A stretch of DNA of 64,000 nt from sequence record NZ_KX832927.1; one strand, given 5' to 3'. Positions 37,240 through 57,233 of the stretch are shown here, in pieces (within the stretch, counting starts at the first letter, position 1; each line of letters begins with the position of its first letter). The notes beneath the pieces were generated by a model. That model made no database searches, was not told the origin of the DNA, and saw nothing but the letters and a program-made list of their open reading frames with translations. Origin of the DNA: a plasmid. A program made the position numbers and the translations under genes.

Positions 37240-37306
37240 TCAATCTACATGAGAAAGGGGCCTTTCGGAGTATATAGTGAATTTTGTGTACTTCTGTTGG
37301 TGAGTG

Positions 37307-37690: not shown

Positions 37691-37692
37691 TG

Positions 37693-38157: not shown

Positions 38158-38241
38158 AAGGCCGACCTCACCATGTAACGCGAAGCTAAGCGGCGGCCCG
38201 TCAGGGACGTCCGGTGGACGGCCGTCAGGCCGGGAACGTAC

Positions 38242-38682: not shown

Positions 38683-38689
38683 CAGTACC

Positions 38690-38785
38690 TACTCGTACAA
38701 CGCTTGCAGCATGCGCGCCTGCGGAATGGAGCCAAAGGCGCAATGTAGTAGGCGTCGCCGTGCCTGCATTGGTTAAAACCTACCA
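38690..38785 (-). repeat. attC site; close paralogue of the attCs at 39315-39397 and 39755-39838
   Basis: Shared core CAGCATGCGCG...GGAATGGAG...GCAATGTAGTAG.CGTCGCCGTG. Confidence 0.6.
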
Positions 38786-39292: not shown

Positions 39293-39314
39293 GTGACCTC
39301 CTGTATTTACGTTT

Positions 39315-39397
39315 TAACGCCAGCCAGCATGCGCGGCTACGGAATGAAGGCGAAGCCGCAATGTAGTAGACGTCGCCGTGACTGGCCTTGTTATGCA
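39315..39397 (-). repeat. attC site
   Basis: Near-identical to 39755-39838. Confidence 0.6.
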
Positions 39398-39398
39398 T

Positions 39399-39731
39399 TT
39401 ACCATTGGACCAAAACGTCTTGAACTTTCAGTGTCTCCGAGTCGAATCCAATCGCCCAAAACACTTTGATATCACTTTTGCTGTACTTCGCCTTCCACAA
39501 CGTCAACTTGGACTCATTTCTCGGTAGGCAATCTATAGACTCGATGCTTTCCAACGCACCCATTTCGTTCTCTATATCCCGACACATATCCAGATACATG
39601 TCTTCAGTGATCTTCCCATCGTCATTCGGGTCCTTAGGCAGCGCCGACATTTCTTGGAGTTCCCGATAGCTCCTTCCGTCATGTAGCTTGATTAGTCGCT
39701 CAGCCAGTTCAGTTTCTCGGTCAGTGATCAC
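39399..39731 (-). CDS. hypothetical cassette protein (about 110 aa; GTG start after AGGAGG)
   Basis: The track ORF extends into the attC. The RBS AAGGAGG with a GTG at 39731 gives a cassette-contained gene. Confidence 0.4.
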   Translation of the reverse strand: MITDRETELAERLIKLHDGRSYRELQEMSALPKDPNDDGKITEDMYLDMCRDIENEMGALESIESIDCLPRNESKLTLWKAKYSKSDIKVFWAIGFDSETLKVQDVLVQW

Positions 39732-39754
39732 GTAACTTGTCCTCCTTGATTGCA

Positions 39755-39838
39755 TAACGCCAGCCAGCATGCGCGGCTACGGAATGGAGGCGAAGCCGCA
39801 ATGTAGTAGACGTCGCCGTGACTGGCCTTGTTAAAACC
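39755..39838 (-). repeat. attC site
   Basis: CATAACGCC...GGCCTTGTTA inverted cores. Confidence 0.6.
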
Positions 39839-39845
39839 TCTTGGG

Positions 39846-40247
39846 TCACTTGGAATAATGCCCCTCTACTGTAATTTGTACCGGAGTGCAGCCAACACGT
39901 CCGGCACCATGGCAGCCATAGCAAGTTTCCCTTTCCCCAGTTTTCGGGTTGTCGTAATACCCGACACCGGCGCATACCTCGCAAGGGCAGCCATTTGCTG
40001 AGAGCTTTTTATACTTAAGCCATGTTTGCTCAAGCAATGTGCTTGGTTCTGCCTTTCCCGTAACCACATCCAACAAATGTTGGTGCTCGATATTGATGGG
40101 ATTGAGAACACCTTGCTCTAAAGCCCTAATCCAACACCCATTCAGCTCCAGCTCCATATTTTCCTGATGGCTAAATTGTCGCTCGAGCCATGCGGGTAAC
40201 AGAAAATCCATCTCTCGATATTTTTTATGTTGTTGTTCATCGTTCAT
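39846..40247 (-). CDS. Cys-rich (CxxC...CxxC zinc-ribbon-like) hypothetical cassette protein
   Basis: GCPCEVCAG...CYGCHGAG motifs. Confidence 0.45.
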   Translation of the reverse strand: MNDEQQHKKYREMDFLLPAWLERQFSHQENMELELNGCWIRALEQGVLNPINIEHQHLLDVVTGKAEPSTLLEQTWLKYKKLSANGCPCEVCAGVGYYDNPKTGERETCYGCHGAGRVGCTPVQITVEGHYSK

Positions 40248-40261
40248 GGTATCACCAGGGC

Positions 40262-40340
40262 ATACCCCGTTTTAACGCCTGGGCTCAGCGGCCGATTTGG
40301 AGGCGCACCGCGCCGGAAAACCGGTCCGCTGGAGCCCCTG
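40262..40340 (-). repeat. attC site of the DinB-like cassette
   Basis: TTAACGCC...CTGGTTATA cores. Confidence 0.5.
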
Positions 40341-40341
40341 G

Positions 40342-40884
40342 TTATACATTGTTCTGACTCGGGATCAGTGCTAGCAAATCCGTTACCCCAACGTCTTCGC
40401 CAGATTGCGAAAGTAGCGTAGTTACCTGCCCCCGATGATGAGTTTGATGATTGAAGAAATGATAGATCAAGGAGGAAAATCGTTTGGTGGCGGGCACACC
40501 CTTGGTATTCTGATAGCTGAGAATAAAATCTAAATCACTATCAGTGAGCCCTGAAATCCATTTGATGATTTTCTCATCTAGCCACTTTCGGTGGCTATAC
40601 AACTCATCAAGATCTTCGAAAATTATTTGGTTGAGGTTTTTGGGAGCCGCTAGCTCAGTGATTTCACGTAGTGGTTCAGCGCTTGCTGGTTGTGCAGCAA
40701 ACCTCTTTAGCCAAATCGTATCCCCAACAACGATATGGTTTAGCGTACCCAATATTGACCCGAAGAAGGCTCTTCGATCTTCTAAAAGAGCCGATTTGCT
40801 CAGGTTGCCTGCGGCGCCATATACCCTCTCATTCATCCACCGGTTGTATTCGGCCATCAGCTCAAAATGTTGTTTCAGGCTCAT
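40342..40884 (-). CDS. DinB/YfiT-family (DinB_2, metal-dependent) protein cassette
   Basis: His-rich triad HxxxD...H...H (FFNHQTHHRG). Confidence 0.6.
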   Translation of the reverse strand: MSLKQHFELMAEYNRWMNERVYGAAGNLSKSALLEDRRAFFGSILGTLNHIVVGDTIWLKRFAAQPASAEPLREITELAAPKNLNQIIFEDLDELYSHRKWLDEKIIKWISGLTDSDLDFILSYQNTKGVPATKRFSSLIYHFFNHQTHHRGQVTTLLSQSGEDVGVTDLLALIPSQNNV

Positions 40885-40904
40885 CTGACTGAGGTCCTTC
40901 TACT

Positions 40905-40995
40905 GTATAACGCCTCACATCACCGGGAGCGAAAAGCAAAGCGAGGGACGAGCGGTACTTTTTGCTCTCCGAGTGCATGTGATTGTTATGTAGTC
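40905..40995 (-). repeat. attC site of the Ere-like cassette
   Basis: TATAACGCC...GATTGTTAT cores. Confidence 0.55.
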
Positions 40996-41008
40996 CAATT
41001 TCCGATGC

Positions 41009-42232
41009 CTATAATTTCACTAATTTATCTTGGTTGGCGCTAGGAACGCAGAATATAGCGTCAAAGGCATCACTCACATTCGTCTCAACAGATGAGCTCT
41101 GCGATCTAACTCGGCTAGCGCCTTTAACGTCGTCCGACAATATTAAACATGAGCCCGCCACACCCCTAGCACTCATAATATGCTGTTCCACACTGTCTCT
41201 TTGGATTTTATCAGCGTCTGTGGGCTCCACCGAAAAGCCTAACGGACTGTCAGGCGAAGGAAACTGCATCTCCGGCACAGTACCCCCTAGATGCGTTGCT
41301 CCAATGGCACGGTAATCTTTCCTCCGATACGCAAGTTGCTGGCCCATAGGAACAGCCGTAAGTTCTCCAGAAAAGGAAACTGAAGTCTTCTGGATATGGT
41401 TGTTATGCGCAAGTAGAAGTATCTTCAAATTTGGATCTGCGTGAAGAAATCTCTCAACAGTGGTAGCTGTGAACATCTCACGAACGGAAGTGTCACCATC
41501 GAGTGAAGTGCCATCAAAGAGCATCTTCATGGTGCGCAATGTTTCGAGCGTATGTTCAATCGAACAGACACACTCCGACGCCCTTTGAAACAGCTCCTTT
41601 CCACCTCGCTGGACTAGAATTGGTTCCAATCCAGACAACCGCAACTTTAACCGACTAATCCGGGAGAAGGCTTGATCCTGTTTAGCGGTACCCAGTTCAC
41701 CCCATTGCGCGGATGAAATCACGGGGGAATCGCCACATATGGATTCCAAAGACTGGATTAACGCATCGACGTCCGGCTTCAAAATGGGATCCAGTAAATC
41801 AATAGCCGCGGACAATCTCTGTAAGTCGTCAAGTGGGTTCAGCGTATTGGGCAAATCAACGCCAACCACCATAATGCTTTTTCCAGTCTCTAAAAGATAA
41901 GATTTGAGCCAAGTCAGCACCGACCCATACAGAGCGAAGGTCAATGGGTTCGTGATTTCCTCTAGCTTATCCGTGCTCGCTGAAGATTTGAGCCATTCGG
42001 AGATCCGGTTACCCTGAACCGCCCCGCACTCCAGCCCAATTGCATTAAACTCGTGCATCTCTACAAAGTATCGGATGAAACTGGCTCTGGCCAAGGAAAA
42101 CTCAGAAACAAAGTGAGCCCCTTCGCCAATCCCTATCACTCTGGCATATTTCGCCATCGAAGATAGATCTTCAAGCTCACTGAAATCTACATTACAAGGC
42201 TGTAAGAGCGTTCTGATTGTTCTGTACGTCAT
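41009..42232 (-). CDS. erythromycin-esterase-family (Ere-like) hydrolase cassette, divergent
   Basis: VIGIGEGAHFVSEF (compare EreA/EreB LGEATHG) and LLAHNNH (AHNxH) motifs. 407 aa matches the family size. Confidence 0.65.
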   Translation of the reverse strand: MTYRTIRTLLQPCNVDFSELEDLSSMAKYARVIGIGEGAHFVSEFSLARASFIRYFVEMHEFNAIGLECGAVQGNRISEWLKSSASTDKLEEITNPLTFALYGSVLTWLKSYLLETGKSIMVVGVDLPNTLNPLDDLQRLSAAIDLLDPILKPDVDALIQSLESICGDSPVISSAQWGELGTAKQDQAFSRISRLKLRLSGLEPILVQRGGKELFQRASECVCSIEHTLETLRTMKMLFDGTSLDGDTSVREMFTATTVERFLHADPNLKILLLAHNNHIQKTSVSFSGELTAVPMGQQLAYRRKDYRAIGATHLGGTVPEMQFPSPDSPLGFSVEPTDADKIQRDSVEQHIMSARGVAGSCLILSDDVKGASRVRSQSSSVETNVSDAFDAIFCVPSANQDKLVKL

Positions 42233-42287
42233 ATGTTCAACTCAATATCTTCATTATGATGGATCTGCTGTATCTAGTTCCTAGGTC

Positions 42288-42410
42288 AGGATACATAACG
42301 CCCTGTTAAGGTGTGAGCAACGCAATACCGAAGCCTCCACACACCACCTTAATCACTTAAATCAACGCATAGTGAAAATGCCACGCGTTGCGAATCACTC
42401 TTGAACAGTT
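42288..42410 (-). repeat. attC site of the dfrA cassette (about 120 bp)
   Basis: ACATAACGCC...GTTTGTTAGCCC cores. Confidence 0.55.
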
Positions 42411-42412
42411 TG

Positions 42413-42886
42413 TTAGCCCTTTGTCCAAATTTGGTACGTGTAATCAATATTTGAACTGAAACTTTGCTCAAATGTTTGCTTGAAACTCTGTGGAACTGAA
42501 GGGAAAAACACGTCGCCAGAGATGTGCTTATGAATCACTGAAAGATGGATAACATCTGCTTGTTCGATTAATGCTTTGTAAATTTCACCACCACCAGAAA
42601 CAAAGACATGTGTTGTCGTGTTGTCTAAGTAAGCTAATGCCGATTCAACGCTTGTGAAATAAACAACATCAGGATCATTCGAGGCCATTTCAGTACGAGT
42701 AACCACAGCATATTTCCTATTCGGAAGTTTACCCATTGAGTCGAAAGTTTTACGACCGACTAAAAGCCAATGATTGTAAGTCATAGCTTTGAACAGGAGC
42801 TGCTCACCATATACATGCCAAGGTATATCCAATCCAGAGCCAATTACTCCATTCTCGGAAACAGCTGCCATAATGGATATTTTCAT
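42413..42886 (-). CDS. dfrA: trimethoprim-resistant dihydrofolate reductase, DfrA family (first cassette)
   Basis: 157 aa. [23 protein letters not shown]...[22 protein letters not shown]...VSGGGEIY...DYTYQIW.KG matches type A Dfr proteins; about 60-65% to dfrA1/dfrA6 as recalled by eye. Confidence 0.85.
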
Positions 42887-43247
42887 TTTTCCTCCTGAGG
42901 GCTAACAGCTTATTAGTTTGCTTTCTTATTAAACCGCAACACCATCACCCAGTCCAATACTGCTTCACAACCTGAATAACCTCGATTTTTCAGATCATTA
43001 CCCCTCCATCTCAGGGGGCTTTTGAGCTTTTGGTTCTGTGAAAAGTGTGCACGCGGGATATTTATGCACGTTTTTGCACGTTAAATCCAGTGGGTCGAAT
43101 TTTTCCCATGCTGAAACAGATACCTACAGAGATGCATTGTGAAAAGTGAGCAGGGCCGTGCAAATTAAGCCGCAAGAATTTTGGTGTTTTTGGGTGTTTT
43201 TTATTATAACTGTACGTACATACAGCATTCAGCCACGGAGGGCGAGC
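42887..43247. promoter_or_regulatory. attI recombination site and Pc/Pint promoter region between the first cassette and intI
   Basis: Cassette boundary core GTTAGCC (reverse complement at 42900-42906). Divergent arrangement typical of integrons. Confidence 0.5.
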
Positions 43248-44216
43248 GTGTCGAAATCACCGTTTCTACAATCGGTCCGCACAGAAATTAGGACAAAGCA
43301 GTACAGCTACCGAACCGAGAAGTCCTATCTTTACTGGGTTCGTCAGTTCATCCTTTTCAATGACAAGAAGCACCCAAAAGTCATGGGTAATCACGAAATT
43401 GAGCGTTTCCTGAATCACCTCGCCGTCAATCGGGGAGTCAGTCCGGGCACTCAAAATCAGGCGCTATGCGCGATTATTTTTGTCTACAAGCATGTGCTGA
43501 AGCGGGAGATTGAAAACCTACAGTACAAGATGACGAAAACGCCTCGACGCATGCCAACCGTTCTGAGTCCCGATGAAGTTGCTTCTATTCTTCAAAACAT
43601 GGATGCAGAGTATTGGCTCATCACTGCGCTTCTTTATGGATGCGGTTTGAGAATCAACGAAGCTCTTTCGCTTCGCGTGAAAGACATCGACCTAAAAAGC
43701 CGCAGTTTGCTCGTATTCAACGGTAAGGGACGAAAAGATCGATACACACTGATTCCAGGCAATCTAAGAGAAAACATGGAGCGACAATTCGCCCATGTCA
43801 GGGCTGTACATGAGTCCGATCTGGCCGATGGATTCGGGCTTACGTCAGTGCCGGCCTCACTTCACAAGAAGTATGGACCGGCCATGAAGGACTTTGGTTG
43901 GCAGTACCTGTTCCCATCCGTAACAAGATGCGTTCATCCCATCGCTGGTTATGTGTGCCGCCACCATCTTCATCATTCATCGTACTCGCGGCGATTGAGG
44001 CAGGCCGTTCTGGCCACGGGAATCACCAAGCGTGTGACGGCTCATACCTTTCGGCATGCCTTTGCGACAGAGTTATTGAGATCGGGGAGCGATATCAGGA
44101 CGGTCCAGGAAATTCTTGGGCATAGCGACATTCGAACGACAGAAATCTACACGCATGTCATTGGCGATCGACGTGCTGGAACCGTCAGCCCTTTTGATCG
44201 TTTGCCAAGTTCTTGA
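43248..44216 (+). CDS. intI: integron integrase (IntI-type tyrosine recombinase)
   Basis: IntI-specific extra segment plus box I ALLYGCGLRINEALSLRVKDID and box II HTFRHAFATELLRSGSDIRTVQEILGHSDIRTTEIYTHV. GTG start after GGAGG gives 322 aa. Confidence 0.85.
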   Translation: MSKSPFLQSVRTEIRTKQYSYRTEKSYLYWVRQFILFNDKKHPKVMGNHEIERFLNHLAVNRGVSPGTQNQALCAIIFVYKHVLKREIENLQYKMTKTPRRMPTVLSPDEVASILQNMDAEYWLITALLYGCGLRINEALSLRVKDIDLKSRSLLVFNGKGRKDRYTLIPGNLRENMERQFAHVRAVHESDLADGFGLTSVPASLHKKYGPAMKDFGWQYLFPSVTRCVHPIAGYVCRHHLHHSSYSRRLRQAVLATGITKRVTAHTFRHAFATELLRSGSDIRTVQEILGHSDIRTTEIYTHVIGDRRAGTVSPFDRLPSS

Positions 44217-44300
44217 TGGGGCGTTGCTTACCCGTTTAAGGGGCGTAAAGCCTGGAATTGGGAGTGCGGCGAATGTCCGCTTTTGTTTATGAGCTGATTT

Positions 44301-44324
44301 CGAGGTATTTGACGACCAGCGATG
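44301..44324. repeat. 24-bp direct repeat, right copy (CGAGGTATTTGACGACCAGCGATG)
   Basis: Matches 37434-37457 with 1 mismatch. Confidence 0.6.
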
Positions 44325-44395
44325 ATCGTTTAAGATGAAGTTGCGGTACAGGGAGAGGTCCCGATGGCCGCGACCGGCGATGAGGGGGCGTGCCA

Positions 44396-46570
44396 TTAAT
44401 GGCTTACCCCCGAATCCCTCTCTTGCAGCAGCTCCCTCAAGAAACTCGCCCGCCTGGTGGCATTGCTTACCGATTTTACGATGGACGCAAAATCACTAGC
44501 CTGCCCGACAATATGTATCTCTGCCTCGGCACGGGTAATCGCCGTGTAAAGCCACGCACGGTCTGAGATACGCCCCGTCTGGACTGCCACGATGATTCTC
44601 GGGAACTGGCTCCCTTGAGCCTTGTGGAGCGTGATTCCGTAGCCAAGCTCCATGCAATCGAAGACTTCATCCGTAATTGAAATGGCTTCGCCGGTATCCA
44701 GCGTCACGACACCAAATGTTTCCTGGCCGTCCTTGGTGTCGCGCTCTGTTGAGGATAATACGCCAAGAGACCCATTCTGAATGCCGATGTTGTACTTGTT
44801 CCTGGTGAAGAGGATCGGGTCGCCCACTCTGATATCGAGGAAGAATTCATCGCCATGCAGTCTAAACTGCAAGCACTCCCCATCGGGATTGATCAGCTTT
44901 TGGCACTCACGGTTCACCTCGCCAACTAGAGCCTTGGTGGCTCCGATGATCTGAGTGTTATAGGGTGACTCCGCATACAAGGATTTGCACTTATCGACCA
45001 TCTTCTGCGGAGGCGTCTCGTGGAACGTGATTGCGCCAACCGATAACGCAGGAGGCACCTCACCCCGATTGATGGTGGCCGAGTATTCCGGGATGCCCGT
45101 TGAGTCTTCCTGGCGTTTGACGATGTTCAACTCAACCGTAGCGATTGCACCGGACTCAACGATGTCTGAGAGGACTTTGCCGCAGCCGATGGCTGGTAGC
45201 TGGTTCGGATCGCCGGTCAGGATGATGCGTACCGAAGGATCGAGGTGCGTAACAATCCGATACATGGTCGGCAGGTCGGTCATACTGGCTTCGTCGATGA
45301 CCAGGAGATGCTGCGCCTGATCCAGTGACGGCGAGATCGGCTCTTCCCGCAACAGGCGAGCAATTGTCATGGTGAAGAATCCGATGCTCTCGTGCAGTCG
45401 CATAGCAGCTCGCCCCGACAGAGCGACGGCATGAACCTGATAGCCTAGTGCGGCATAGGCTTTGAGCACGGCACGAAGGACCGTGGTTTTACCCGTACCG
45501 GCACCACCCGTAATGCAGGACACCGCATTGGTAAGGCTCAACTCGACCGCTTGGACCTGCTGCTCGGTCAGGTCGTAGGGCAACTCCTGAACGGCCTCGG
45601 TGAGCGCCTTGAAGACGGATTCATCTTCATTCTTGATGGCGGCCAGGGCCTTGAGCCGCTTCGCAACGACCGACTCCATCATGATTTGGGCGGTAGGGTG
45701 GTAGGTGCCGGTCTCTGGCCTGAGAATGAACTGGCCGTTGCGATAACCGCTGGCGAACGCCTCTGCGACCAGAGCTTTATCGCCCAGAAGCTTGGTCACC
45801 TCGGGCCTGAGCGCCGGATGGGAGGCGTAGGTGTGCCCCTTTTCTACCTCTTTTCGTATCGCGCTTTCTAACGCAGCTGCGAGCCGCACCGGTGCCGATT
45901 TATCCATGCCCATTTTTTCAGCAATCGCATCGATATCGGGAAAAGGCATTCCGAATCCGAGCAATGCGTAGGGATTGGTCTTGAGTACCTCAACGGTTCG
46001 ATTATCGTGGTACTTTAGAATGCGTTGCTGGATGCTCAGCGGCACTCCCAGAGAAGCCAGCCAATTCGCATGCGCAAGGTTTTTGTACTTGGCGTAGCCG
46101 TTGTATAGCGCGGTTACTGAAACCTCGCTAAGAACCTCCCTGAGACGGCCTCTGTGCTCGGAGGTATTGGATTGGAGCATGGGGTGCAGGTCACTGCCAA
46201 AAACGTTCCAGAGGGCGCGTGCTTTGGCCTCACCGATACCGGTGAACTCCTTTTCATTGGCAATGAAACGGATCAGCGCCTCGCCCGTTTCCGGCAGCGT
46301 GCACTCCATCTCAGCTGGGGCGTCATACAAATGTTGCTGAAGCTTATAATCGCCTGCCTGAACGGTCTCCAGCGTCCTTACGCCACGCACTCGCCATTGC
46401 TGACCAACGGACGGCTTGATAGGCAGGGACTGGTTTTCGCATCGGATGCTGACGATGTATTTGCCCGAGTTGATCTTGTAACTGTCAGTCTTGAGGGGAA
46501 CGCCCGTGAAGATCGTGTATTTATAGCCGTTATGCTGGCAGCTGGTGACACGGAAATACTCTTCATGCAT
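44396..46570 (-). CDS. RecD2-like (AAA_30 / UvrD_C_2) DNA helicase with N-terminal HhH region
   Basis: Walker A GGAGTGKTT. HhH FTGIGEAKARAL. Motif QAVELSLT...LVIDEASM. Confidence 0.7.
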   Translation of the reverse strand: MHEEYFRVTSCQHNGYKYTIFTGVPLKTDSYKINSGKYIVSIRCENQSLPIKPSVGQQWRVRGVRTLETVQAGDYKLQQHLYDAPAEMECTLPETGEALIRFIANEKEFTGIGEAKARALWNVFGSDLHPMLQSNTSEHRGRLREVLSEVSVTALYNGYAKYKNLAHANWLASLGVPLSIQQRILKYHDNRTVEVLKTNPYALLGFGMPFPDIDAIAEKMGMDKSAPVRLAAALESAIRKEVEKGHTYASHPALRPEVTKLLGDKALVAEAFASGYRNGQFILRPETGTYHPTAQIMMESVVAKRLKALAAIKNEDESVFKALTEAVQELPYDLTEQQVQAVELSLTNAVSCITGGAGTGKTTVLRAVLKAYAALGYQVHAVALSGRAAMRLHESIGFFTMTIARLLREEPISPSLDQAQHLLVIDEASMTDLPTMYRIVTHLDPSVRIILTGDPNQLPAIGCGKVLSDIVESGAIATVELNIVKRQEDSTGIPEYSATINRGEVPPALSVGAITFHETPPQKMVDKCKSLYAESPYNTQIIGATKALVGEVNRECQKLINPDGECLQFRLHGDEFFLDIRVGDPILFTRNKYNIGIQNGSLGVLSSTERDTKDGQETFGVVTLDTGEAISITDEVFDCMELGYGITLHKAQGSQFPRIIVAVQTGRISDRAWLYTAITRAEAEIHIVGQASDFASIVKSVSNATRRASFLRELLQERDSGVSH

Positions 46571-47006
46571 CGGGCGCTACTCCGAACTCTGTGAGGACTT
46601 CGGACAGTTCACCGTAACGTTTTAGCTTGGCTTCGAGGGTTGCCACCCGGGCCTTTAGTTCAATGTTTTCCTGCTCCAGCACTGAGAGCCTTCTCGATTC
46701 CATGGCTCTTTTGTTAACGCTGGGATCATAGCGTTTGGGTTCTGATCGCTGGGCCTTGGCGGTTTCGGTCAGTTCTGGCAGAACACCCCGATAACGCAGG
46801 TTCTGCTCCAGATTCTCCAATGCCGTTTTGATGGCCGGATTCTGGCGCAACGCGCTCTTTCCGATGCCTATGGCTTTGGCCACTTCGCCACGGTTTAACT
46901 GGCCCCGATGGAGGATCTGCTTAAAATCGTCATCCGTTTGGGTGGCCACCCAGCTCTGGAAGGCACTCAGGTTCTGACGTGCTCTTTCCTGACCATTACT
47001 CATCAA
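46563..47006 (-). CDS. HTH DNA-binding protein with coiled-coil C-terminus
   Basis: LNRGEVAKAIGIGKSALRQN helix-turn-helix. Heptad-like leucines. Confidence 0.45.
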   Translation of the reverse strand: MMSNGQERARQNLSAFQSWVATQTDDDFKQILHRGQLNRGEVAKAIGIGKSALRQNPAIKTALENLEQNLRYRGVLPELTETAKAQRSEPKRYDPSVNKRAMESRRLSVLEQENIELKARVATLEAKLKRYGELSEVLTEFGVAPDA

Positions 47007-47664
47007 TTTCCCCCAGGATCTTCTTGAGCCCGGTCAGGAAGCCACGAGGCAGGATTTCCACACCATACTCATCCTTCACCTGACCCAATTCGTTCGCCTG
47101 GAACCCGAGCTTTTCGAGCCACTCATCGGTGCAGACGGTTTGCAGGGCTTTAATCTCGTTGTCAGAGCAGACTCCCTTCAATGAGGGCAGCAGCTCCACA
47201 CTGGCGTCTGACTGGGGTTCACTGTAAACCGTAGGGCGCTTGTCGATGACGATCTGGGTTTGGTTCTTGAGCATGTTGGCTTCGCTCCTGTAGCGATCCC
47301 GCTCACGGATGATTTGCCCAAAAAGGGCTCGCACAGCTGTATCATCAATCCGCTCAAGCAACTGATGGTCCTGAGTTGGTCTCTTGGCAGGCCCTACCGG
47401 TGGCTTCTTGGTGGTGGTCTTCGCCTTAGCGGCCCACGCTTCAATCAGGTCCCGGTAATGCTTGTTCGCGGTGGCACGAATCGACTGATAGCCAACGCCG
47501 TCATTTTCCTCTGAGACACGCCCTATGGTGGTAATGGAGAAGTCCCGGGCACCGGATTCGTAGTAGTCCTTCAGGGTCTGGTTGAGCGTATCCAGGGACG
47601 ACTGTGTTTTAGCGGTTTTACCGTCCTTGAGGGACTCCAGAACCGCATTGGTATCGATGTTCAT
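46996..47664 (-). CDS. hypothetical protein (222 aa)
   Basis: Overlapping stop/start with both neighbours. Confidence 0.45.
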   Translation of the reverse strand: MNIDTNAVLESLKDGKTAKTQSSLDTLNQTLKDYYESGARDFSITTIGRVSEENDGVGYQSIRATANKHYRDLIEAWAAKAKTTTKKPPVGPAKRPTQDHQLLERIDDTAVRALFGQIIRERDRYRSEANMLKNQTQIVIDKRPTVYSEPQSDASVELLPSLKGVCSDNEIKALQTVCTDEWLEKLGFQANELGQVKDEYGVEILPRGFLTGLKKILGEIDE

Positions 47665-50282
47665 TCTTCCACCTCCAGGGCGGGAATCCGCGCCACGGAT
47701 TCAGTAGGCAAGGTGATTGGGGCTATCTTCTTCACGGCGTCAAACCCGGATTTCAGCAGCCGATCGTCTTTCAGGAATTCCTGCGCCTCAATGTAATTGG
47801 ACGCGATCCGGTAGCCCTCAAGCCGATCTTCGGGGGCGGCGATTTTGGCCATCTTGCGCATGAGCGCGTTACCCGCAATCAACTGGGTTTGTTCGTCCAT
47901 TTCAAGGAAAACGGGCTTGTACCCGGAACGGGCCATCATGCGGCTCAAGGCGTTGGTACGCTTGGCTATCGCGGGCGTCTTGCGCAGATCATCATGCAGA
48001 TCGGGGTGGAACTCAGCGTCCTCGCACAGCAGTGCCAGGTGCAGTAACTCCGAGTCAGTTTCGACGAACTTCATACTATATTTGAGGTCTTCATCAGAGC
48101 CGACCGCGATCAGCTTTTGCCCGTCGTCGTCCTCTTCACGCCCATTCTCGATCTGGATCACCCGATTGATCAGGTTGAAAATTGCGATGCAATCCTTGGC
48201 GTACTCATCCGCCTCCACCCTCTGCTTCTCGTAGCGCCGTTCTATCGCCTGAAGTTCGTTGTGCTTGAGAAACACTGCACCGGTTTCCTCAGCGATGAAC
48301 AGCTCATCCTTTAGTGCTTCTAGCTGACCCTCTAGGTGAACAGACAGCTCGGCCGCCTGGTGCGCCTTGTAGCTCACCTGGTTGAACGCAGAATTGAGAG
48401 CCGGAAGATAGGTGGCATCGGTAATGTGCCAGCGACAGCGGGGACAGTTTTCCGGCCCGAGGGGGACCGGGCCATAAACTCTTGAATGTGCGCTTTCTGA
48501 ACCCCTAACTATCGGGCCACCGTTCCAGCACCCGCCTACGGTGGACAGCTCATCTGAGCGCACGGTGTTGCCCCCAACCAGGCACAAGCCCGTGGCTCGT
48601 TCCTCCCAGCCGATGGGATTCCGGTTGGCAAGCACGCTCTCGACGGAATTGTGCTGGTCGTTGTGAAAGGCAGCCCGGAGCGGGATCTGTCTCATTTCCG
48701 CGTCCACCAGGAAGTTTCGGAGCGAGCCTTCACCTCGTTCGGACAGAACTGCGTGTGCCTCCTTCATTTTGTCGGCCATCACGGAGGGCGTGATCTTGTT
48801 GTAATAGATCGTCATCAGAAGCCGTGTGTGGCCGGCCAGAAGCTTCGCGATCACCGGCAAGGGGAGGTCGGTGTCCATGGTGTAGCAGGTGATCAAGGAG
48901 ACCCGAAGGCTGTGAAGCGGGTAGTCCGTTGCCACCTTAGCGGCTTCCGTACCTTCAAAGTCCTCGCCGTAGTCTTTCACAAACCGAAGGCGATCCCCGT
49001 TGGCCATCGTTTGGCCCGACTGGAAGACATCCTCTTCCAGTTTGGACAACAGGCGATACCACGAACTAGCCAATGAGGTGTAGGTAATTGGAAAAGCAGA
49101 ATTACGCTCCCTGAATAAAAAGGCAAACTCGCCCATTTGTTTCAATTGTTGCTTGGATTTAGCGACGCCAATATGGCTACGCTTAAGCTCTGTGCCACTG
49201 ACCAGTCGGTTAATCGGGTTGTATTTTTCCTGCCAACTGCGGAGCTTTTCCAGCCAATACAGCAGCTCTTCGTGCTGCCAAGGGATGGTGTATCCCCGCT
49301 GAAGTTCATCCTTGTTTTGATCGGCGGTTTTGTTGGTGGACACGTAGAGGCCGGTCGAGTACCCCTCGGTCATGGAGTCATATATGCGGCGGAAGACGCC
49401 TTTCTCATAAGGTCGCTTGGGCGTTCCATACTTGAAGGGGTGCTTGGTGTTTTCCACCCATTGCCCACCTTCATAGCGCCAGGTATCGGCTTCGCCGGAG
49501 TCCAGAAACCTCACCTGAAAAGAGCGCAGGGGTAGGTGCAGCTTGGTAAACAGGAACATCGCCATGACCGGCGACCAGATTTCGTGGACCTCAACTCTTT
49601 CTCCCTTCCTGGGCACAATCCGAGTCCGGAAAACGCAATCCGGATCATCAGGGTCGATGACCTCGGGCGGCACTTCCACCCATGCCCCATTGCCAGACTG
49701 AAGGTGATCGATGGCCCATTGCCAGTCCCGGAAATGGTGGCCTACCCACGGCGTTTTATTGCCGGGGTCGTCGGTTGGATAGGGGCAGAGGATGTGCCTC
49801 AGTTGCTGGATGTAGCGATAGGGCAAGGGGCTGTGGACGGTTTCGGTGTTTGATGTGTTATTCGTGATTTTCTCGAACGGATTCGGGAATAGGGGCCGCC
49901 CAACGCCGTTATCGTCCTCGGCGCTCAAATGGTGCTTGAGGATGTAATTGCATAAATCGACCGTGGACGAAATGTGTTTAGAGTTTTTAGTAATCGATCC
50001 ACTGCTAACCAGAAAGGCCTCAAACTCTTCCGTGGACACCTTGTGACCACCCGGATGGCCCTTGAACATCGTGGCCACGTCAACGGCGTACGGGGCTTTA
50101 GCGTTCAGATAGTTAAAGAAGTGTCTTAAGCATTTTAATCGCAGATCAATGCCTACGTTTTGCTCCGCAAGCCATTCGGCGGCGTACTGCTGCCATTGCA
50201 GCCAGTTGTGCCCCAGTTCCTTAGTCACCCACCCCAGCGTCAGATCCGTGGTGTAGCCTTTACTCGTCCTTCTTTTTGTCAT
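47661..50282 (-). CDS. large tyrosine-recombinase-like protein (873 aa) with extended middle and C-terminal regions
   Basis: Integrase-like N-terminal core-binding region. Catalytic-type R...HxxR...Y pattern (LRVSLI...AGHTRLLMTIYY). CxxC pair (CPRCRWH). Confidence 0.55.
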   Translation of the reverse strand: MTKRRTSKGYTTDLTLGWVTKELGHNWLQWQQYAAEWLAEQNVGIDLRLKCLRHFFNYLNAKAPYAVDVATMFKGHPGGHKVSTEEFEAFLVSSGSITKNSKHISSTVDLCNYILKHHLSAEDDNGVGRPLFPNPFEKITNNTSNTETVHSPLPYRYIQQLRHILCPYPTDDPGNKTPWVGHHFRDWQWAIDHLQSGNGAWVEVPPEVIDPDDPDCVFRTRIVPRKGERVEVHEIWSPVMAMFLFTKLHLPLRSFQVRFLDSGEADTWRYEGGQWVENTKHPFKYGTPKRPYEKGVFRRIYDSMTEGYSTGLYVSTNKTADQNKDELQRGYTIPWQHEELLYWLEKLRSWQEKYNPINRLVSGTELKRSHIGVAKSKQQLKQMGEFAFLFRERNSAFPITYTSLASSWYRLLSKLEEDVFQSGQTMANGDRLRFVKDYGEDFEGTEAAKVATDYPLHSLRVSLITCYTMDTDLPLPVIAKLLAGHTRLLMTIYYNKITPSVMADKMKEAHAVLSERGEGSLRNFLVDAEMRQIPLRAAFHNDQHNSVESVLANRNPIGWEERATGLCLVGGNTVRSDELSTVGGCWNGGPIVRGSESAHSRVYGPVPLGPENCPRCRWHITDATYLPALNSAFNQVSYKAHQAAELSVHLEGQLEALKDELFIAEETGAVFLKHNELQAIERRYEKQRVEADEYAKDCIAIFNLINRVIQIENGREEDDDGQKLIAVGSDEDLKYSMKFVETDSELLHLALLCEDAEFHPDLHDDLRKTPAIAKRTNALSRMMARSGYKPVFLEMDEQTQLIAGNALMRKMAKIAAPEDRLEGYRIASNYIEAQEFLKDDRLLKSGFDAVKKIAPITLPTESVARIPALEVEE

Positions 50283-51751
50283 GATTTACCTTTGCCCAAT
50301 CGTGGATTCTTGCCCGTAAAGTGGCCGTTTGGATCAATGTCTTCAAAACCGTGTTCTGCAAGCGTCTTCCAATCGAAAGATGCGGGGGGCTTTTCCTTAT
50401 CCGATCCCAACTGAAGTTGTTGTGTTGCCTGGGACAGCGCTTCCGAGACTTTCGCGCTGGAGGGCATGGTGTAAGGAACCTGAGACTCCAGGCTTGCGTG
50501 ATGCAGGCACTTTTTGCGAATAAGCGGATCGACTCCGGCATCCGTCAATCGACGGCCATAGTTGTGGCGATGGCCGTGTGGATCTAACCCTACGGTCTTG
50601 TCGGGTTCGAGACCAATTCGTCTTAACCCAGCCGCATAATTTTGGTTGAAGGAATTGTAGGTATAGGGATTGCCCAGATAGCGAGAGTCGAAGCTAACAA
50701 ACGCATAGGGATGATGGCACTCCACCGATGCACGGAAAACCAAATACTGTCGCCACAGCGACATGAATACTTGGGCAAACTCTTGCGGGAAGAAATGCGC
50801 CTCCAGGTAGCCATCCTTGTCATCTAGGGTTTTGGATTTCCAGCCGAGATGTGGGGTTTTTTGCATCTCCTGGCGCGGGATGCGTGCGTATTTTTCTTGA
50901 AGGTACGCCTTGCGGGTTTTTATCCCTTTTCGGGACTTCCAGCCTTCAGGTGCCTTACCTTCTATCTCGTTGTAGATCCTCACGATTGCCCGATCTGGAT
51001 CGGAGGGGTCTTCAAAGACATCGGTGACCCAGAGTAACAGTGCTTCGCTCACCCTCAATCCGGTCGCGTGCATCAGGAGCACGATAAGCTTGTCCCGCAG
51101 CGCAACTCGCGGGTCTTTGGCTCCTCCCAGGCCCTTCATATAGAAGTCTTCAAACTTTCCCGTAGGGAAGGCGATGGCATCGTCATTGGTTTTTGCCAGA
51201 GGTGTTCTGCCCTTGATGCTGCGGGCTCTTTTTACCGTGGTACTAACCGAGGTGTCTTTAATGTGCCCGAGGAAATCATTCTGGTTACGCCTAAACCAAG
51301 CGGCGTACTGAATGCGTTCCTCATGTCGAGTGGCTGTGCGCAAGGTATTGAGAGGCTTGCCCAGACCTTTGTCCGAGAGCCAATTGGTGAAATTCGTCAG
51401 ATTGCTGATGTGTCGATGTATCGTGCCATTACTGGCCGGTATCCAATACAGGCCAGAGGGGTCCAATCCATCTTCACCGATGGTCCCGCTGTAGAGCCGT
51501 CGGACGAAGCCCGCGAACAACGCTTCGGGTTCATCGAACATGCCTTCGTTGGCATCCATGAACTCGATGAGGAGTCTAATCGACTGAATATGGTTGGTGA
51601 TTGTTGAAAATGAGATGCCATTTAGGTGAAGGCTAAGCACATAATCTGTGACCGACCCCAAAACCCCTTGGTCGGTCAGAATGACCGGGATCTCTGTGGT
51701 TACTCCACTGTTATCCTGAACTACCTTGGCTGTAACCTTCGTTGCAAACAT
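50279..51751 (-). CDS. tyrosine-recombinase-like protein (490 aa)
   Basis: Box I GLRVSEALLLW. Box II HGHRHNYGRRL. C-terminal LHHASLESQVPY. 4-bp overlap with the downstream 873 aa gene. Confidence 0.6.
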   Translation of the reverse strand: MFATKVTAKVVQDNSGVTTEIPVILTDQGVLGSVTDYVLSLHLNGISFSTITNHIQSIRLLIEFMDANEGMFDEPEALFAGFVRRLYSGTIGEDGLDPSGLYWIPASNGTIHRHISNLTNFTNWLSDKGLGKPLNTLRTATRHEERIQYAAWFRRNQNDFLGHIKDTSVSTTVKRARSIKGRTPLAKTNDDAIAFPTGKFEDFYMKGLGGAKDPRVALRDKLIVLLMHATGLRVSEALLLWVTDVFEDPSDPDRAIVRIYNEIEGKAPEGWKSRKGIKTRKAYLQEKYARIPRQEMQKTPHLGWKSKTLDDKDGYLEAHFFPQEFAQVFMSLWRQYLVFRASVECHHPYAFVSFDSRYLGNPYTYNSFNQNYAAGLRRIGLEPDKTVGLDPHGHRHNYGRRLTDAGVDPLIRKKCLHHASLESQVPYTMPSSAKVSEALSQATQQLQLGSDKEKPPASFDWKTLAEHGFEDIDPNGHFTGKNPRLGKGKS

Positions 51752-51811
51752 CCTTGAATCCTACACAAATTACACATTATTTACTATATATATAGTGCAG
51801 TCTTCAGGAAA

Positions 51812-51850
51812 AAGAAACCCCCAATTAAGGGGGTTTTTATCAAATTTACA
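51812..51850 (-). terminator. rho-independent terminator downstream of traN
   Basis: On the minus strand: AAACCCCCTTAATTGGGGGTTT hairpin followed by CTTTTTCC. Confidence 0.6.
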
Positions 51851-51888
51851 CAGTTCTATGTACTATAGAGAACGAAAGGCCCCTTTTT

Positions 51889-54699
51889 TTATCCACCACC
51901 ACCAGTTGGCGCGCCTGTTTGAGGGTCTATGCTGTTTGTCGCCTCTTTTCGCTTCGCGTCAATATCAATCCCTTCCAACCGCTCCAACGCCCTTTCCTGA
52001 GCATTCTTCCGCGTCCCGTCAATATTGAAGTCATTCCCTGCTCCAGTCAGCGAGTCGAGATTTATTGAGGCCGGATCAGGGAATTTACCGTTCTGCTGTA
52101 ATATCCCAAGCCACTCATCCAAATTAATTTTGCTCCAATCAATTTCGGCAATTTTATCTAGTGGAATCCCTTCACACTGAGGATTTTTGGGGTCTCCAAA
52201 GTTCTGCCCCAATTGAGGGCGAACCTGTTCTTGTATAATACGAGAGAGCGGAGAATTGAAGCAGCAATACGCTTCTCTTTTTTCAATACAAGCGCCCAAC
52301 ACCTTAGATTTACAATAAGAGCCTACATAGGTGCAATTCTTGAGCGCTCTTTTGGCGTTCATAGTGAACTCTTCTTCCTCGCACTTATAAATCATCTGGA
52401 TCATCACCATCGCAACGACATAGACGGTATATATCGTCATGGCAGTGCTAAGCCATGTTGTCGCAGTCTCCATCATTGCTTCGGCAGCTTGTTCAGATGC
52501 TGCGGCAGCCGCCTGCTCTGTTGCTGCATCTTGGCCTGCTGATTTCATGACATCCATCATCACTTCTTTGACTTGCTCTTTGAGCTGGTCAATGAGTTGA
52601 TCAACAAACTGCTCTACAGGCTGGAAGAACGAATCAACAGCACCTGAAACGTTCTCTATATAACTTGTGAACGGTTTTGTGACTTCTGTCCACCCTTGAA
52701 GGGCAGGTTCCCTAAGTACCTGATAAGCACCTTTAAGCGCATTACCATCAGTCAGCCCCATCACTGCGCCATCGAGCTTTGGAACGGCCATTATTAGGTT
52801 CAGATAATCGGCAAGAGATATATTGGTTGGCTTTTCACAGCAATCAGAAACTCCCCCAACAGCTATCTTGCATTCGCCAGCTTCCCCTGCAAAAGCAGAG
52901 CAAATAACGTTTTCATCCCCGGTAGGATTGTCATCCCCATCTTGGCCTGTGCAGCTCATATCCTGCGTCATGAATTGGGCTGCATTGAGCAACGCAGTAG
53001 CGCGAGCAAAATCAGTGCTTTGTGTTTTGGTCAAATCAAGGCAGTCATCTCCCATGCAGCGTATAGGCCCACCGCACTGGTACTCAGTTTCCTTTTCCAA
53101 GGTCGGAACAGAAACATCTGTACCACAGTCATAAGTATCCTCGTGGACGTAGCACGTACCAGAACTTCCCTGAGCACCATCAACACATTTGGAACTGATG
53201 AAGCCGCACTGAGGGTTTTCTTCATATTTCTGACAGCTATCGAGATTCCCGCCCGTGTTTACCGGACAGTGCGTTTCACCTTGAGGGTCTGTCCAGCAGT
53301 CCATTTGCCCCTTATAAAAGTCATAGTCAGCTTTAACTCGAACCTTTTTGCATAGTTTTGGAATACCAGGCAAAGGTGACGGCTTGAGTTGAGATTCGCA
53401 AACTTTGATCCCATTGATGACTGTGCAGCCCGTAGCATCAGTCGGGTCATCTATACATGTGATCTCGCCTTCCGCAAAACCATCTACAACCCCTTTGGCT
53501 GAATCCATGCAGCTCTGTGGAGCCCACTCATCCTTGGTAATGGCTTTTGATGGGTCATAGCGTAGCTTTATGCGGCCAAAACCCTCACCTGCGCCAGTTA
53601 CTGAAACGCGGATCTTAAACGTAACAACATCACCATCTTTCACATTCTTGAAATAGGGAGTGACATCAATATTAGGGTTTCGCTCCCAACTTGTTGACAA
53701 TTCACATCGGCCAGCCGTTTCTGGAGGGAAATTGCCGTCAGGGCCGGACCATACTTTAGTTTCCTGACCTGATTTACCAACCCAAACTTGCATGTAGTCA
53801 TCCCACTTGGCGTACTCAAGAGTTGCAGACACTATGGCGTCTGGATTACTGACTTGGACCCGCGTGTATTCCTCATAAATCGAACAGTTGCCACTCCAGT
53901 AGTCGTTACCAACTCGGCCAATCCACAACTCAGTACAGCCTTCTCCACAAGATTTGAGGTTATATGGACCATCATAGTGCTTCACCACAGAGGCATCGTA
54001 GTCATGGACAACCTCACAGTCCGCGCTTTGATCTACAACACGCTGACACCGTTCATACTCTGGAATGTGGGCGTTGATAGTATTCTGATTGATGGTTGTT
54101 TCGGCAGAACAATCCCCAAAGCCACCTGCGATGAGGTCCATATCCTCATAGGTCTTTTTGCTTAGATTTAGTACAGGGTCATTACTGAAATCAGGGCGTG
54201 ATCGATTAGAGGCATCGAGAAGAACCTTGTATGCCGCACCAGAGATTGATGGATTAGCACTATTGGCATCACTCCACAGCGACCCTTTTGCATTATTCCC
54301 CACGCTGTCCATGTCATCGCCAGAGTCGTAAATGCCTTGCAGACCGCCCACATCAGGTTTATTGGCATCAGGGAAGTAATAACTATCAGGTTTATTGTTG
54401 GTCCCGCTCGTTCCGGGGAATAGATCATTGACATTAATCTGACTCCCCCCGTTCATTTGGAATTGACCGTCTTTCAACGTCGGCATAGAGATTGTGCCAT
54501 CTTGCACAGTCCCCGAGCTCGACTTGAATGAGTTTGAGAGGTTTTGTCCGAAAGCCTGGGCCTCTTTACCCACCGCTGTGATGTCCTGGTCTTGGCTACC
54601 GTTAGCGTAGGAATGTATCGGCAGCGCAGACATGGTTACTGTCAACAGCGAGGCCACAGCTTTCATAAAGTAATTATGACTTCGCATTGTGTTCTCCAT
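51889..54699 (-). CDS. traN: TraN, outer-membrane mating-pair stabilisation protein (Cys-rich)
   Basis: 936 aa with signal peptide and numerous conserved cysteines. Position after traU. Confidence 0.8.
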   Translation of the reverse strand: MENTMRSHNYFMKAVASLLTVTMSALPIHSYANGSQDQDITAVGKEAQAFGQNLSNSFKSSSGTVQDGTISMPTLKDGQFQMNGGSQINVNDLFPGTSGTNNKPDSYYFPDANKPDVGGLQGIYDSGDDMDSVGNNAKGSLWSDANSANPSISGAAYKVLLDASNRSRPDFSNDPVLNLSKKTYEDMDLIAGGFGDCSAETTINQNTINAHIPEYERCQRVVDQSADCEVVHDYDASVVKHYDGPYNLKSCGEGCTELWIGRVGNDYWSGNCSIYEEYTRVQVSNPDAIVSATLEYAKWDDYMQVWVGKSGQETKVWSGPDGNFPPETAGRCELSTSWERNPNIDVTPYFKNVKDGDVVTFKIRVSVTGAGEGFGRIKLRYDPSKAITKDEWAPQSCMDSAKGVVDGFAEGEITCIDDPTDATGCTVINGIKVCESQLKPSPLPGIPKLCKKVRVKADYDFYKGQMDCWTDPQGETHCPVNTGGNLDSCQKYEENPQCGFISSKCVDGAQGSSGTCYVHEDTYDCGTDVSVPTLEKETEYQCGGPIRCMGDDCLDLTKTQSTDFARATALLNAAQFMTQDMSCTGQDGDDNPTGDENVICSAFAGEAGECKIAVGGVSDCCEKPTNISLADYLNLIMAVPKLDGAVMGLTDGNALKGAYQVLREPALQGWTEVTKPFTSYIENVSGAVDSFFQPVEQFVDQLIDQLKEQVKEVMMDVMKSAGQDAATEQAAAAASEQAAEAMMETATTWLSTAMTIYTVYVVAMVMIQMIYKCEEEEFTMNAKRALKNCTYVGSYCKSKVLGACIEKREAYCCFNSPLSRIIQEQVRPQLGQNFGDPKNPQCEGIPLDKIAEIDWSKINLDEWLGILQQNGKFPDPASINLDSLTGAGNDFNIDGTRKNAQERALERLEGIDIDAKRKEATNSIDPQTGAPTGGGG

Positions 54700-56465: not shown

Positions 56466-56480
56466 GGTAATGACTCCAAC

Positions 56481-56984
56481 TTATTGATAGTGTTTTATGT
56501 TCAGATAATGCCCGATGACTTTGTCATGCAGCTCCACCGATTTTGAGAACGACAGCGACTTCCGTCCCAGCCGTGCCAGGTGCTGCCTCAGATTCAGGTT
56601 ATGCCGCTCAATTCGCTGCGTATATCGCTTGCTGATTACGTGCAGCTTTCCCTTCAGGCGGGATTCATACAGCGGCCAGCCATCCGTCATCCATATCACC
56701 ACGTCAAAGGGTGACAGCAGGCTCATAAGACGCCCCAGCGTCGCCATAGTGCGTTCACCGAATACGTGCGCAACAACCGTCTTCCGGAGCCTGTCATACG
56801 CGTAAAACAGCCAGCGCTGGCGCGATTTAGCCCCGACGTATCCCCACTGTTCGTCCATTTCCGCGCAGACGATGACGTCACTGCCCGGCTGTATGCGCGA
56901 GGTTACCGACTGCGGCCTGAGTTTTTTAAATGGCGGAAAATCGTGTTGAGGCCAACGCCCATAATGCGGGCGGTTGCCCGGCAT
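56481..56984 (-). CDS. insB: IS1 InsB (transposase catalytic part, made as InsAB' by frameshift)
   Basis: Sequence matches canonical IS1 InsB ([26 protein letters not shown]...). Confidence 0.9.
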
Positions 56985-57178
56985 CCAACGCCATTCATGG
57001 CCATATCAATGATTTTCTGGTGCGTACCGGGTTGAGAAGCGGTGTAAGTGAACTGCAGTTGCCATGTTTTACGGCAGTGAGAGCAGAGATAGCGCTGATG
57101 TCCGGCGGTGCTTTTGCCGTTACGCACCACCCCGTCAGTAGCTGAACAGGAGGGACAGCTGATAGAAACAGAAGCCAC
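56903..57178 (-). CDS. insA: IS1 InsA
   Basis: [43 protein letters not shown]... matches canonical InsA. Confidence 0.9.
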
Positions 57179-57233
57179 TGGAGCACCTCAAAAACACCAT
57201 CATACACTAAATCAGTAAGTTGGCAGCATCACC

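Follow-up and report, generated by a model that had tools for sequence, protein, structure and literature searches.

The window examined here is the whole stretch of 64,000 nucleotides of the plasmid record NZ_KX832927.1, and the part of interest adjoins traN. An earlier note on this DNA had singled out positions 44396-51888 as an inserted module with two large tyrosine-recombinase-like genes, two small genes and a RecD2-like helicase. The five open reading frames (ORFs) are all present on the minus strand, with the sizes that were given for them (490, 873, 222, 147 and 724 amino acids, aa); the boundaries enclose only the core half of the element, which reaches to 37262 and includes an integron. 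Taking the evidence presented below into consideration, we regard it as likely, with a probability of about 0.85, that the five-gene block represents the core end of a Gamma-Mobile-Trio (GMT) island, which spans 14.6 kb (37262-51872), is inserted at the apex of a terminator and moves by way of a circle with a hand-over of 6 bp. The borders and core genes of this island, and the gene next to it, are as follows.

37254-37261, no strand: backbone, left half AAAGGGGC of the split terminator hairpin (from the pT212 empty site)
37262-37267, no strand: 6-bp fingerprint CTTTCG (CGAAAG in the gmtY direction), attributed to the donor copy (junction comparison)
37268-37420, no strand: gmtY-distal island end, with the motif TATAGT-N6-TGTGTA at 37273-37290 and a terminator-like hairpin at 37312-37341 followed by a T run (empty-site comparison)
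44396-46570, minus strand: RecD2-like SF1B helicase, 724 aa, accessory gene of this GMT clade (Pfam; synteny)
46563-47006, minus strand: VPA1267-family protein, 147 aa, with weak helix-turn-helix and coiled-coil signals (NF040697)
46996-47664, minus strand: gmtX, 222 aa (NF040692)
47661-50282, minus strand: gmtZ, large integrase, 873 aa, with a Cys4 and coiled-coil C-terminal extension (NF047926; PF13009)
50279-51751, minus strand: gmtY, tyrosine recombinase, 490 aa (NF040693; PF00589)
51752-51872, minus strand: gmtY-proximal island end, with a subterminal motif at 51771-51788, a hairpin at 51815-51836 and a terminal motif at 51847-51867 (motif and hairpin scan)
51873-51878, no strand: the target's own central 6 bp, CGAAAG on the plus strand and CTTTCG in the traN direction (matches the pT212 empty site)
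51879-51886, no strand: backbone, right half GCCCCTTT of the split hairpin (from the pT212 empty site)
51889-54699, minus strand: traN, stop codon at 51889-51891 (ORF)

GMT islands, with VPaI-6 of Vibrio parahaemolyticus as the type element, were described by Mahata et al. (bioRxiv 10.1101/2023.03.28.534373); they have been reported to form circles, to insert into inverted repeats around a spacer, to need all three genes of the trio and to retain the donor copy, and conjugative plasmids can carry them. In the window, gmtY, gmtZ and gmtX are adjacent in that order with 4-bp overlaps, and the trio is found at the island border, where gmtY starts (51751) only 121 bp from the island end at 51872. 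Two halves of an inverted repeat (37254-37261 and 51879-51886) flank the island, and the empty site consists of this repeat around a spacer. The sizes and order of the genes had been thought to match no known family; however, four of the five proteins exceed the cut-offs of NCBIfam equivalog models, i.e., GmtY (NF040693, 529 bits vs 340), GmtZ (NF047926, 989 bits vs 600), GmtX (NF040692, 228.4 bits vs 40) and the VPA1267-family protein (NF040697, 193.9 bits vs 90). The RefSeq plasmid records already carry the PGAP names gmtY, gmtX, "VPA1269 family protein" and "VPA1267 family protein". The datasets of the GMT preprint include an entry for P. rettgeri RB151 (GmtY WP_071547865.1, three copies, 14,607 bp) with 13 cargo genes, no defence system scored (Dataset S3) and AAAGGGGCctaagaGCCCCTTT as the insertion site (bioRxiv 10.1101/2023.03.28.534373). 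The GmtY of the window has the same accession (WP_071547865.1). Since these datasets list the same island, both this kind of element and this member of it were already known; a literature search found no paper on this island in IncC plasmids.

Successive genes of the core operon overlap by 4, 4, 11 and 8 bp. Pfam analysis assigned Phage_integrase to the 490-aa protein (E = 1.8e-10), Integrase_2 (PF13009) to the 873-aa protein (E = 2e-97) and AAA_30, HHH_RecD2, SH3_13 and UvrD_C_2 to the 724-aa protein. The latter scored 366 bits with the RecD2 equivalog model TIGR01448, which is below the cut-off of 500, and is therefore RecD2-like by domain content only. A general Pfam scan gave no match for the 222-aa and 147-aa proteins; weak matches of the VPA1267 protein were to CENP-B_N (helix-turn-helix) in the N-terminal part, to a coiled coil of the DivIVA type in the C-terminal part and to DUF6262 (E = 0.046). 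By their published descriptions alone, the SE protein Srap (SE, strand-biased circularising element) and TnpC of Tn554 have a similar layout. On the minus strand, a 107-aa ORF (44073-44396) begins at the stop codon of the helicase gene and overlaps with the 3' end of the integron integrase gene, which is encoded on the opposite strand. This ORF has no family match, no gene is called at its position in islands without the integron, and it probably does not represent a gene.

The R/HxxR/Y signatures that the earlier note had seen in both recombinases were found to coincide with conserved residues. In GmtY, the candidate catalytic residues R233, H392-x-x-R395, H417/H418 and Y427 are invariant in 25 sequences, and in GmtZ the candidate residues R253 (LPLRS), H457-S-L-R460, H485 and Y493/Y494 are invariant in 26 sequences. 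Cysteines 567, 585, 613 and 616 of GmtZ are also invariant and, together with the catalytic candidates, are kept as far as a 38%-identical Burkholderia homologue; the segment that holds Y493/Y494, GHTRLLMTIYYNK, looks like the usual tyrosine box. The fold of GmtZ could not be confirmed. An AlphaFold2 model built on a 34-sequence alignment was poor (mean predicted local distance difference test score 55.6, catalytic region below 50), and a Foldseek search of the PDB with this model returned nothing below E = 0.08, XerH being found at a non-significant E = 0.26. No match was obtained when PDB sequences were searched with a profile of the GmtZ alignment, phmmer with GmtZ alone gave chance matches only, and hhalign comparisons of the GmtZ and GmtY profiles, at full length and for the catalytic parts, were not significant. 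Because these structure and profile searches gave nothing significant, the fold of GmtZ is suggested by its conserved motifs alone.

Comparison with other plasmids showed that the five genes are an inserted module, as had been proposed. A megablast search of positions 44000-52000 against 72,556 plasmids gave 729 matching records, and the block is present in only four of these, all of them Providencia IncC plasmids; the remaining 725 share only the end of traN or an integrase fragment. The same block is found at chromosomal sites, and its G+C content (0.51-0.60) differs from that of the flanking traN region (0.44-0.49). Moreover, pT212, an IncC plasmid without the island, has an intact hairpin with nothing inserted (...catgagAAAGGGGCCGAAAGGCCCCTTTTTTTAtcc..., i.e., AAAGGGGC-CGAAAG-GCCCCTTT). 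The genes do adjoin traN and all four carrier plasmid records are IncC, as would be expected if the five genes belonged to a conserved IncC or SXT backbone downstream of traN, but this explanation is refuted by the empty site and can be set aside with near certainty.

When the window was aligned with the plasmids pPROV161-1 and pCHS4.1-1, a block of approximately 14.6 kb (~37254-51886) was found to be inverted relative to the backbone. This alignment and the empty site of pT212 place the inserted DNA at 37262-51872 (+/- one base) without target duplication, which answers the question of boundaries and target duplication that had been left to a comparison with related plasmids. The target at traN consists of an A-tract, GGGGC, 6 bp, GCCCC and a T-tract, and the insertion point is the apex of a palindromic terminator that is common to traN and a convergent gene encoding a 286-aa protein. 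The island thus does not follow the traN terminator, as had been believed, but lies inside its hairpin; because the island splits this terminator, the "traN terminator" noticed earlier corresponds either to one half of the original hairpin or to the hairpin at 51815-51836, which is now found 3' of traN and is borne by the island. Since each island end has its own hairpin, both flanking genes keep a terminator. The hairpin of the distal end (37312-37341) has a folding energy of -22 kcal/mol (z = -5.3). The gmtY-distal end is conserved in the related loci L009, L028 and L019 (L numbers denote the loci compared here), and the gmtY-proximal end is conserved in related loci as well. The motif TATAGT-N6-9-TGTGTA is present three times in the 64 kb, each time within ~100 bp of an island end (0.075 copies expected by chance), and these motifs are likely candidates for protein-binding sites. 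The AT-rich region upstream of the 490-aa gene had been described as promoter-like; a simple scan for sigma-70 promoters was negative there on the minus strand.

Natural copies of the island were found by look-up of the helicase protein in public assemblies, and eight of the loci returned carry the island. Five copies are 100% identical to the island of the window over ~14.6 kb, two are 99.97-99.99% identical and the copy at the traN site of pPROV161-1 is 99.9% identical. In Providencia chromosomes and IncC plasmids, at least four hairpins resembling terminators were found to hold the island, and at two of these it is present in both orientations. The junctions are listed below in the direction of gmtY, in the order arm, 6-mer, island, 6-mer and arm, with a hyphen between arm and 6-mer.

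Window copy, traN terminator: gmtY side AAAGGGGC-CTTTCG; distal side CGAAAG-GCCCCTTT
pPROV161-1 copy, traN terminator, other orientation: gmtY side AAAGGGGC-CGAAAG; distal side TCTTAG-GCCCCTTT
pPROV161-1 second copy, adjoining traG: gmtY side TAAGGGGGC-CTGCTG; distal side TCTTAG-GCCCCCTTA
Providencia chromosomes (L030), glpX / peptide-transporter site: gmtY side AAAGGGC-CTTTCG; distal side TCTTAG-GCCCTTT
Providencia chromosomes (L037), glpX site, other orientation: gmtY side AAAGGGC-CGAAAG; distal side TCTTAG-GCCCTTT
RB151 chromosome, malic-enzyme site: gmtY side AAAGGGGC-TCTTAG; distal side CGTTAG-GCCCCTTT

At the two sites with an empty-site sequence, traN (pT212) and the malic-enzyme site (published), the 6-mer on the gmtY side is identical to the target spacer, and the distal 6-mer is foreign. 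At the traN site this is the case in both orientations, the 6-mer adjoining gmtY being the target's own spacer each time. The foreign TCTTAG of the traN, traG and glpX copies is identical to the gmtY-side 6-mer of the malic-enzyme copy. Similarly, the foreign CGAAAG of the window (37262-37267), which differs from the 6-mer of the target in this orientation, is the one that adjoins gmtY in the opposite-orientation copies of pPROV161-1 (L002/L031) and L037. RB151 retains the malic-enzyme copy, and two further copies in this strain bear its 6-mer as a fingerprint, which is compatible with replicative transfer. In the Neopusillimonas relatives both 6-mers are identical, as would be expected if donor and target were the same site. 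An inverted duplication of the target 6-mer was also considered and was rejected, as it fits the window and none of the other copies.

The orientation of the island in the window could in principle have arisen by inversion in place through the flanking inverted hairpin halves, with no new transposition, given that inverted repeats adjoin the island on both sides and that related plasmids carry it in the reverse orientation at the same site. If the pPROV161-1 copy were inverted, however, the 6-mer on the traN side would be CTAAGA or CGAAAG and that at the far end TCTTAG or CTTTCG; the 6-mers of the window are CTTTCG and CGAAAG, and no TCTTAG fingerprint is left. Inversion in place cannot yield these junction 6-mers and is considered very improbable as the origin of the window copy.

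Transposition with a hand-over of 6 bp, the reading favoured here, would proceed along the following lines. As judged from the junctions, the junction of the circle would carry 6 bp from the gmtY flank of the donor, so that it is predicted to consist of end, 6 bp and end without hairpin arms (...CTATAGAGAA + the 6 bp of the gmtY flank + GAGTATATAG...). The circle would then be inserted between the hairpin arms of the target, with the 6 bp of the donor arriving at the gmtY-distal end; the target's own 6 bp would remain beside gmtY, and the two 6-mers would not need to match. From the GMT work and by analogy with SEs, GmtY and GmtZ may carry out the strand exchange, with GmtX being required and the donor copy being kept, and it could be speculated that the VPA1267 protein and the helicase assist in making or replicating the circle. 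A rule of this type (fingerprint and footprint) was described for SEs and is said to hold for Tn554 too (PMC10214605). In the GMT preprint, cleavage was placed inside the spacer and an "apparent spacer duplication" was mentioned for one case, but no hand-over rule was stated (bioRxiv 10.1101/2023.03.28.534373).

Further analysis of the target sites showed that the eight empty sites that were rebuilt form hairpins of -16 to -23 kcal/mol, with a 4-nt loop in seven of the eight, an A-tract before and a T-tract after; they have the form of two-way intrinsic terminators. The four sites of this island have AAGGG(G)C-N6-G(C)CCCTT in common. Two GGGGC-N6-GCCCC palindromes in the window (24475-24490 and 31771-31786) have no flanking A- or T-tracts and are unoccupied. 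Among 17 relatives with a GmtY at least 74% identical, 13 have a gmtY-side flank composed of an A-tract and then a G+C-rich arm, with varying arm sequences, and the published VPaI-6 site, AAAAATGGCGgccaagtggtCGCCATTTTT, has a similar look (bioRxiv 10.1101/2023.03.28.534373). Recognition could be either by structure or by a loose sequence pattern.

Several points weigh against the interpretation of the block as part of a GMT island that moves with a hand-over of 6 bp. The rule was derived by comparing natural copies, and circle, excision and transposition were not observed here; an independent empty-site sequence is at hand for only two of the four sites. In VPaI-6, a change of the spacer abolished insertion (bioRxiv 10.1101/2023.03.28.534373), which is a poor fit with full tolerance of non-matching 6-mers. 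In addition, AlphaFold2, Foldseek, PDB profile and hhalign analyses did not tie GmtZ to the tyrosine-recombinase fold, the VPA1267 gene and the helicase gene are missing from many GMT islands, and many copies of the helicase are truncated.

The last two of these points also bear on the function of the VPA1267 gene and the helicase gene. These two genes directly follow gmtX in most related loci with enough downstream sequence as well as on a Klebsiella IncHI1B plasmid, which characterizes them as a clade-specific accessory module. The two genes could nevertheless be cargo, such as a defence or accessory system, with no part in mobility, and we rate this as a serious possibility, somewhat short of an even chance. 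GMT islands without the pair exist (Burkholderia glumae, L009, L022 and L027), an island of Vibrio alginolyticus has the VPA1267 gene without the helicase, VPA1267 is rarer than GmtY among plasmid records (45 vs 150) and the published deletions show a need for the trio only (bioRxiv 10.1101/2023.03.28.534373). PADLOC analysis of GmtZ, GmtX, VPA1267 and the helicase identified no specific system; the generic RecD-type matches of the helicase could be taken to support a cargo function, whereas VPA1267 was not assigned to any specific defence family. Against a cargo function, each gene of the pair overlaps the preceding gene, the pair is always found directly after gmtX, and its divergence roughly tracks that of the trio (~60% identity where GmtY is 57-60% identical). 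A role of the pair in making or copying the circle is speculative; it is attractive in view of the apparently replicative transfer and of the resemblance of the helicase to helicases associated with relaxases. A broader hypothesis, which we put forward tentatively and regard as rather doubtful, is that islands of this GMT clade move from terminator to terminator, recognizing the intrinsic-terminator hairpin (A-tract, G+C stem, tetraloop and T-tract) and not one fixed sequence, by one mechanism shared with SEs and Tn554, a strand-biased copy-out with a 6-bp hand-over, and that VPA1267 and the RecD2-like helicase form their own strand-peeling or replicating module.

Islands of Pusillimonas and Neopusillimonas (L013/L014/L033/L039) encode a helicase that is 100% identical to that of the window and a GmtY that is only 81% identical; because of this difference, GMT islands appear to exchange modules by recombination. 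The cargo of these islands consists of copper- or cation-related genes and not of an integron.

In the island of the window, the part distal to the core genes is an integron, with the following genes.

37693-42886, minus strand: cassette array, eight cassettes (Pfam; RefSeq)
37693-38157, minus strand: cassette, GNAT acetyltransferase (Pfam/RefSeq)
38242-38682, minus strand: cassette, 146 aa, no assigned function (ORF)
38786-39292, minus strand: cassette, 168 aa, no assigned function (ORF)
39399-39770, minus strand: cassette, 123 aa, no assigned function (ORF)
39846-40247, minus strand: cassette, DUF413 (Pfam/RefSeq)
40342-40884, minus strand: cassette, DinB (Pfam/RefSeq)
41009-42232, minus strand: cassette, erythromycin-esterase family (Pfam/RefSeq)
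42413-42886, minus strand: cassette, dfrA46 (Pfam/RefSeq)
43248-44216, plus strand: integron integrase, not class 1, WP_008169685.1 (TIGR02249; RefSeq CDS)

The integrase is of the integron type (TIGR02249, 401.7 bits vs a cut-off of 265) and adjoins the cassette array. Judged by eye, attC-like imperfect palindromes ending in GCGTT are present downstream of seven of the eight cassettes, and the DUF413 spacer lacks that ending. With PRK15417 the integrase scored 285.7 bits, below the cut-off of 435; it is therefore not IntI1, and the integron does not belong to class 1. Marinobacter persicus (L007) and Salinivibrio costicola (L028) also have GMT islands in which the helicase is followed by the same integrase, and the closest GmtY relatives, with 92-93% identity, are those of Marinobacter, Halomonas and Halopseudomonas. 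As far as can be judged from these sequence relatives, the island is of marine origin.

Other carriers of the island showed rearrangements or variants. The plasmid pCHS4.1-1 (L001, NZ_OL908906.1) has a single island, with junctions at ~13256 and ~27883, whose gmtY flank is that of the traG site and whose distal flank is that of the traN site. Because these flanks derive from two sites, the backbone between them appears to have been rearranged by recombination between two island copies. The gmtZ gene of pCHS4.1-1 is annotated as shorter (2379 nt), matching residues 74-873 only. In the RB151 chromosome (CP017671.1; L034 and L035), an IncC-like transfer region is located between two copies, which are arranged as glpX-island-286-aa gene and traN-island-peptide transporter. 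At a traN site, L038 (JANIDU010000010.1) carries a variant of the island in the orientation of the window with an additional cassette, and its cassette array contains a group II intron (RVT_1/GIIM); the variant features are at 13882-14538 and 19415-20761. Its traN-side junction near 4690, GGGGCTCCTTTCG, is two bases longer than that of the window.

Elsewhere in the window, an IS1B-like insertion sequence of ~766 bp (56468-57233), which is absent from pCHS4.1-1 and pPROV161-1, is found at the junction of an EAL-domain gene and a gene for a TrbC-family pilus-assembly protein (trbC), the EAL gene apparently being cut from 223 to 176 aa. An ISCR-type (Y2_Tnp) transposase gene and a gene for an Rhs protein of 1420 aa, which has an EndoU nuclease domain in its C-terminal part, are located within 25-993 and 2202-6464; both are presumably known features of IncC plasmids.

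Since the element type and this island had already been catalogued, these findings reveal no new system; the element is of an ordinary, known kind, to which a modest mechanistic addition is made. The identical natural copies yield a concrete and testable rule for the movement and the targets of GMT islands, both of which are open questions according to the authors of the GMT preprint, and the 6-bp fingerprints allow transposition events between replicons to be ordered. The "14.6-kb direct repeats" of RB151, which flank a plasmid-derived region of the chromosome and were reported without explanation (PMC5554438), are accounted for by the island. A route by which a marine dfrA46 integron could have reached clinical IncC plasmids is also indicated, leading from cassette to integron, from integron to GMT island and from there to a conjugative plasmid.

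By comparison with GMT islands described so far, the island of the window has the same gmtY-gmtZ-gmtX trio at one border, variable cargo, a location on a conjugative plasmid and an insertion site made of inverted repeats around a spacer. It differs in that its cargo is an integron with resistance cassettes, with no defence system or type VI secretion system effector scored, although anti-phage or antibacterial tools are typical cargo of the family without being obligatory, and in that the VPA1267 gene and the helicase gene, which are absent from the preprint text, follow the trio. The exact borders, the integron cargo, the terminator apex as a target in both orientations and the 6-bp hand-over rule are added here; the preprint is silent on the hand-over, on the use of both orientations and on the terminator nature of the sites.

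The earlier note had likened the block to Tn554 and to strand-biased circularising elements, and its view of an integrative element with paired recombinases was supported. The likeness holds for the behaviour of the junctions, as seen for this one island at four locations, two of which have an independent empty-site sequence. In SEs, the 6 bp proximal to the recombinase genes likewise pass to the circle junction and from there to the far end of the newly made copy, the 6 bp of the target end up at the recombinase side and no target duplication is made; SEs also have marine gammaproteobacterial hosts, a median size of ~15 kb and resistance genes in some members (Idola et al. 2023, PMC10214605). 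The 6-bp footprint of Tn554 is copied from the donor to the new site in the same way (PMC10214605). Paired recombinases and a small auxiliary protein are a further resemblance, which for TnpA, TnpB and TnpC of Tn554 amounts to an analogy of layout (a smaller and a larger recombinase plus the auxiliary protein). The likeness does not extend to the proteins, which are GMT equivalogs. By definition, an SE has the four core genes intA, tfp, intB and srap (PMC10214605), which sets apart the present element with its GmtY, GmtZ and GmtX followed by VPA1267 and the helicase; the protein families differ, the SE proteins being compared by description. Relatives of Tn554 have been reported only from Staphylococcus and Enterococcus, whereas the hosts here are Gammaproteobacteria. 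Tn554, a Gram-positive element with a single preferred site, att554, has a TnpA of ~361 aa and a TnpB of ~630 aa, as compared to 490 and 873 aa for the recombinases of the island. Membership in the Tn554 family or among the SEs is thus unlikely. A final parallel exists with class 1 integrons in Tn402 and Tn21, where the integron is also immobile alone and is moved by a carrier element and then by a conjugative plasmid; here, the integrase is not IntI1 and the carrier is a GMT island.

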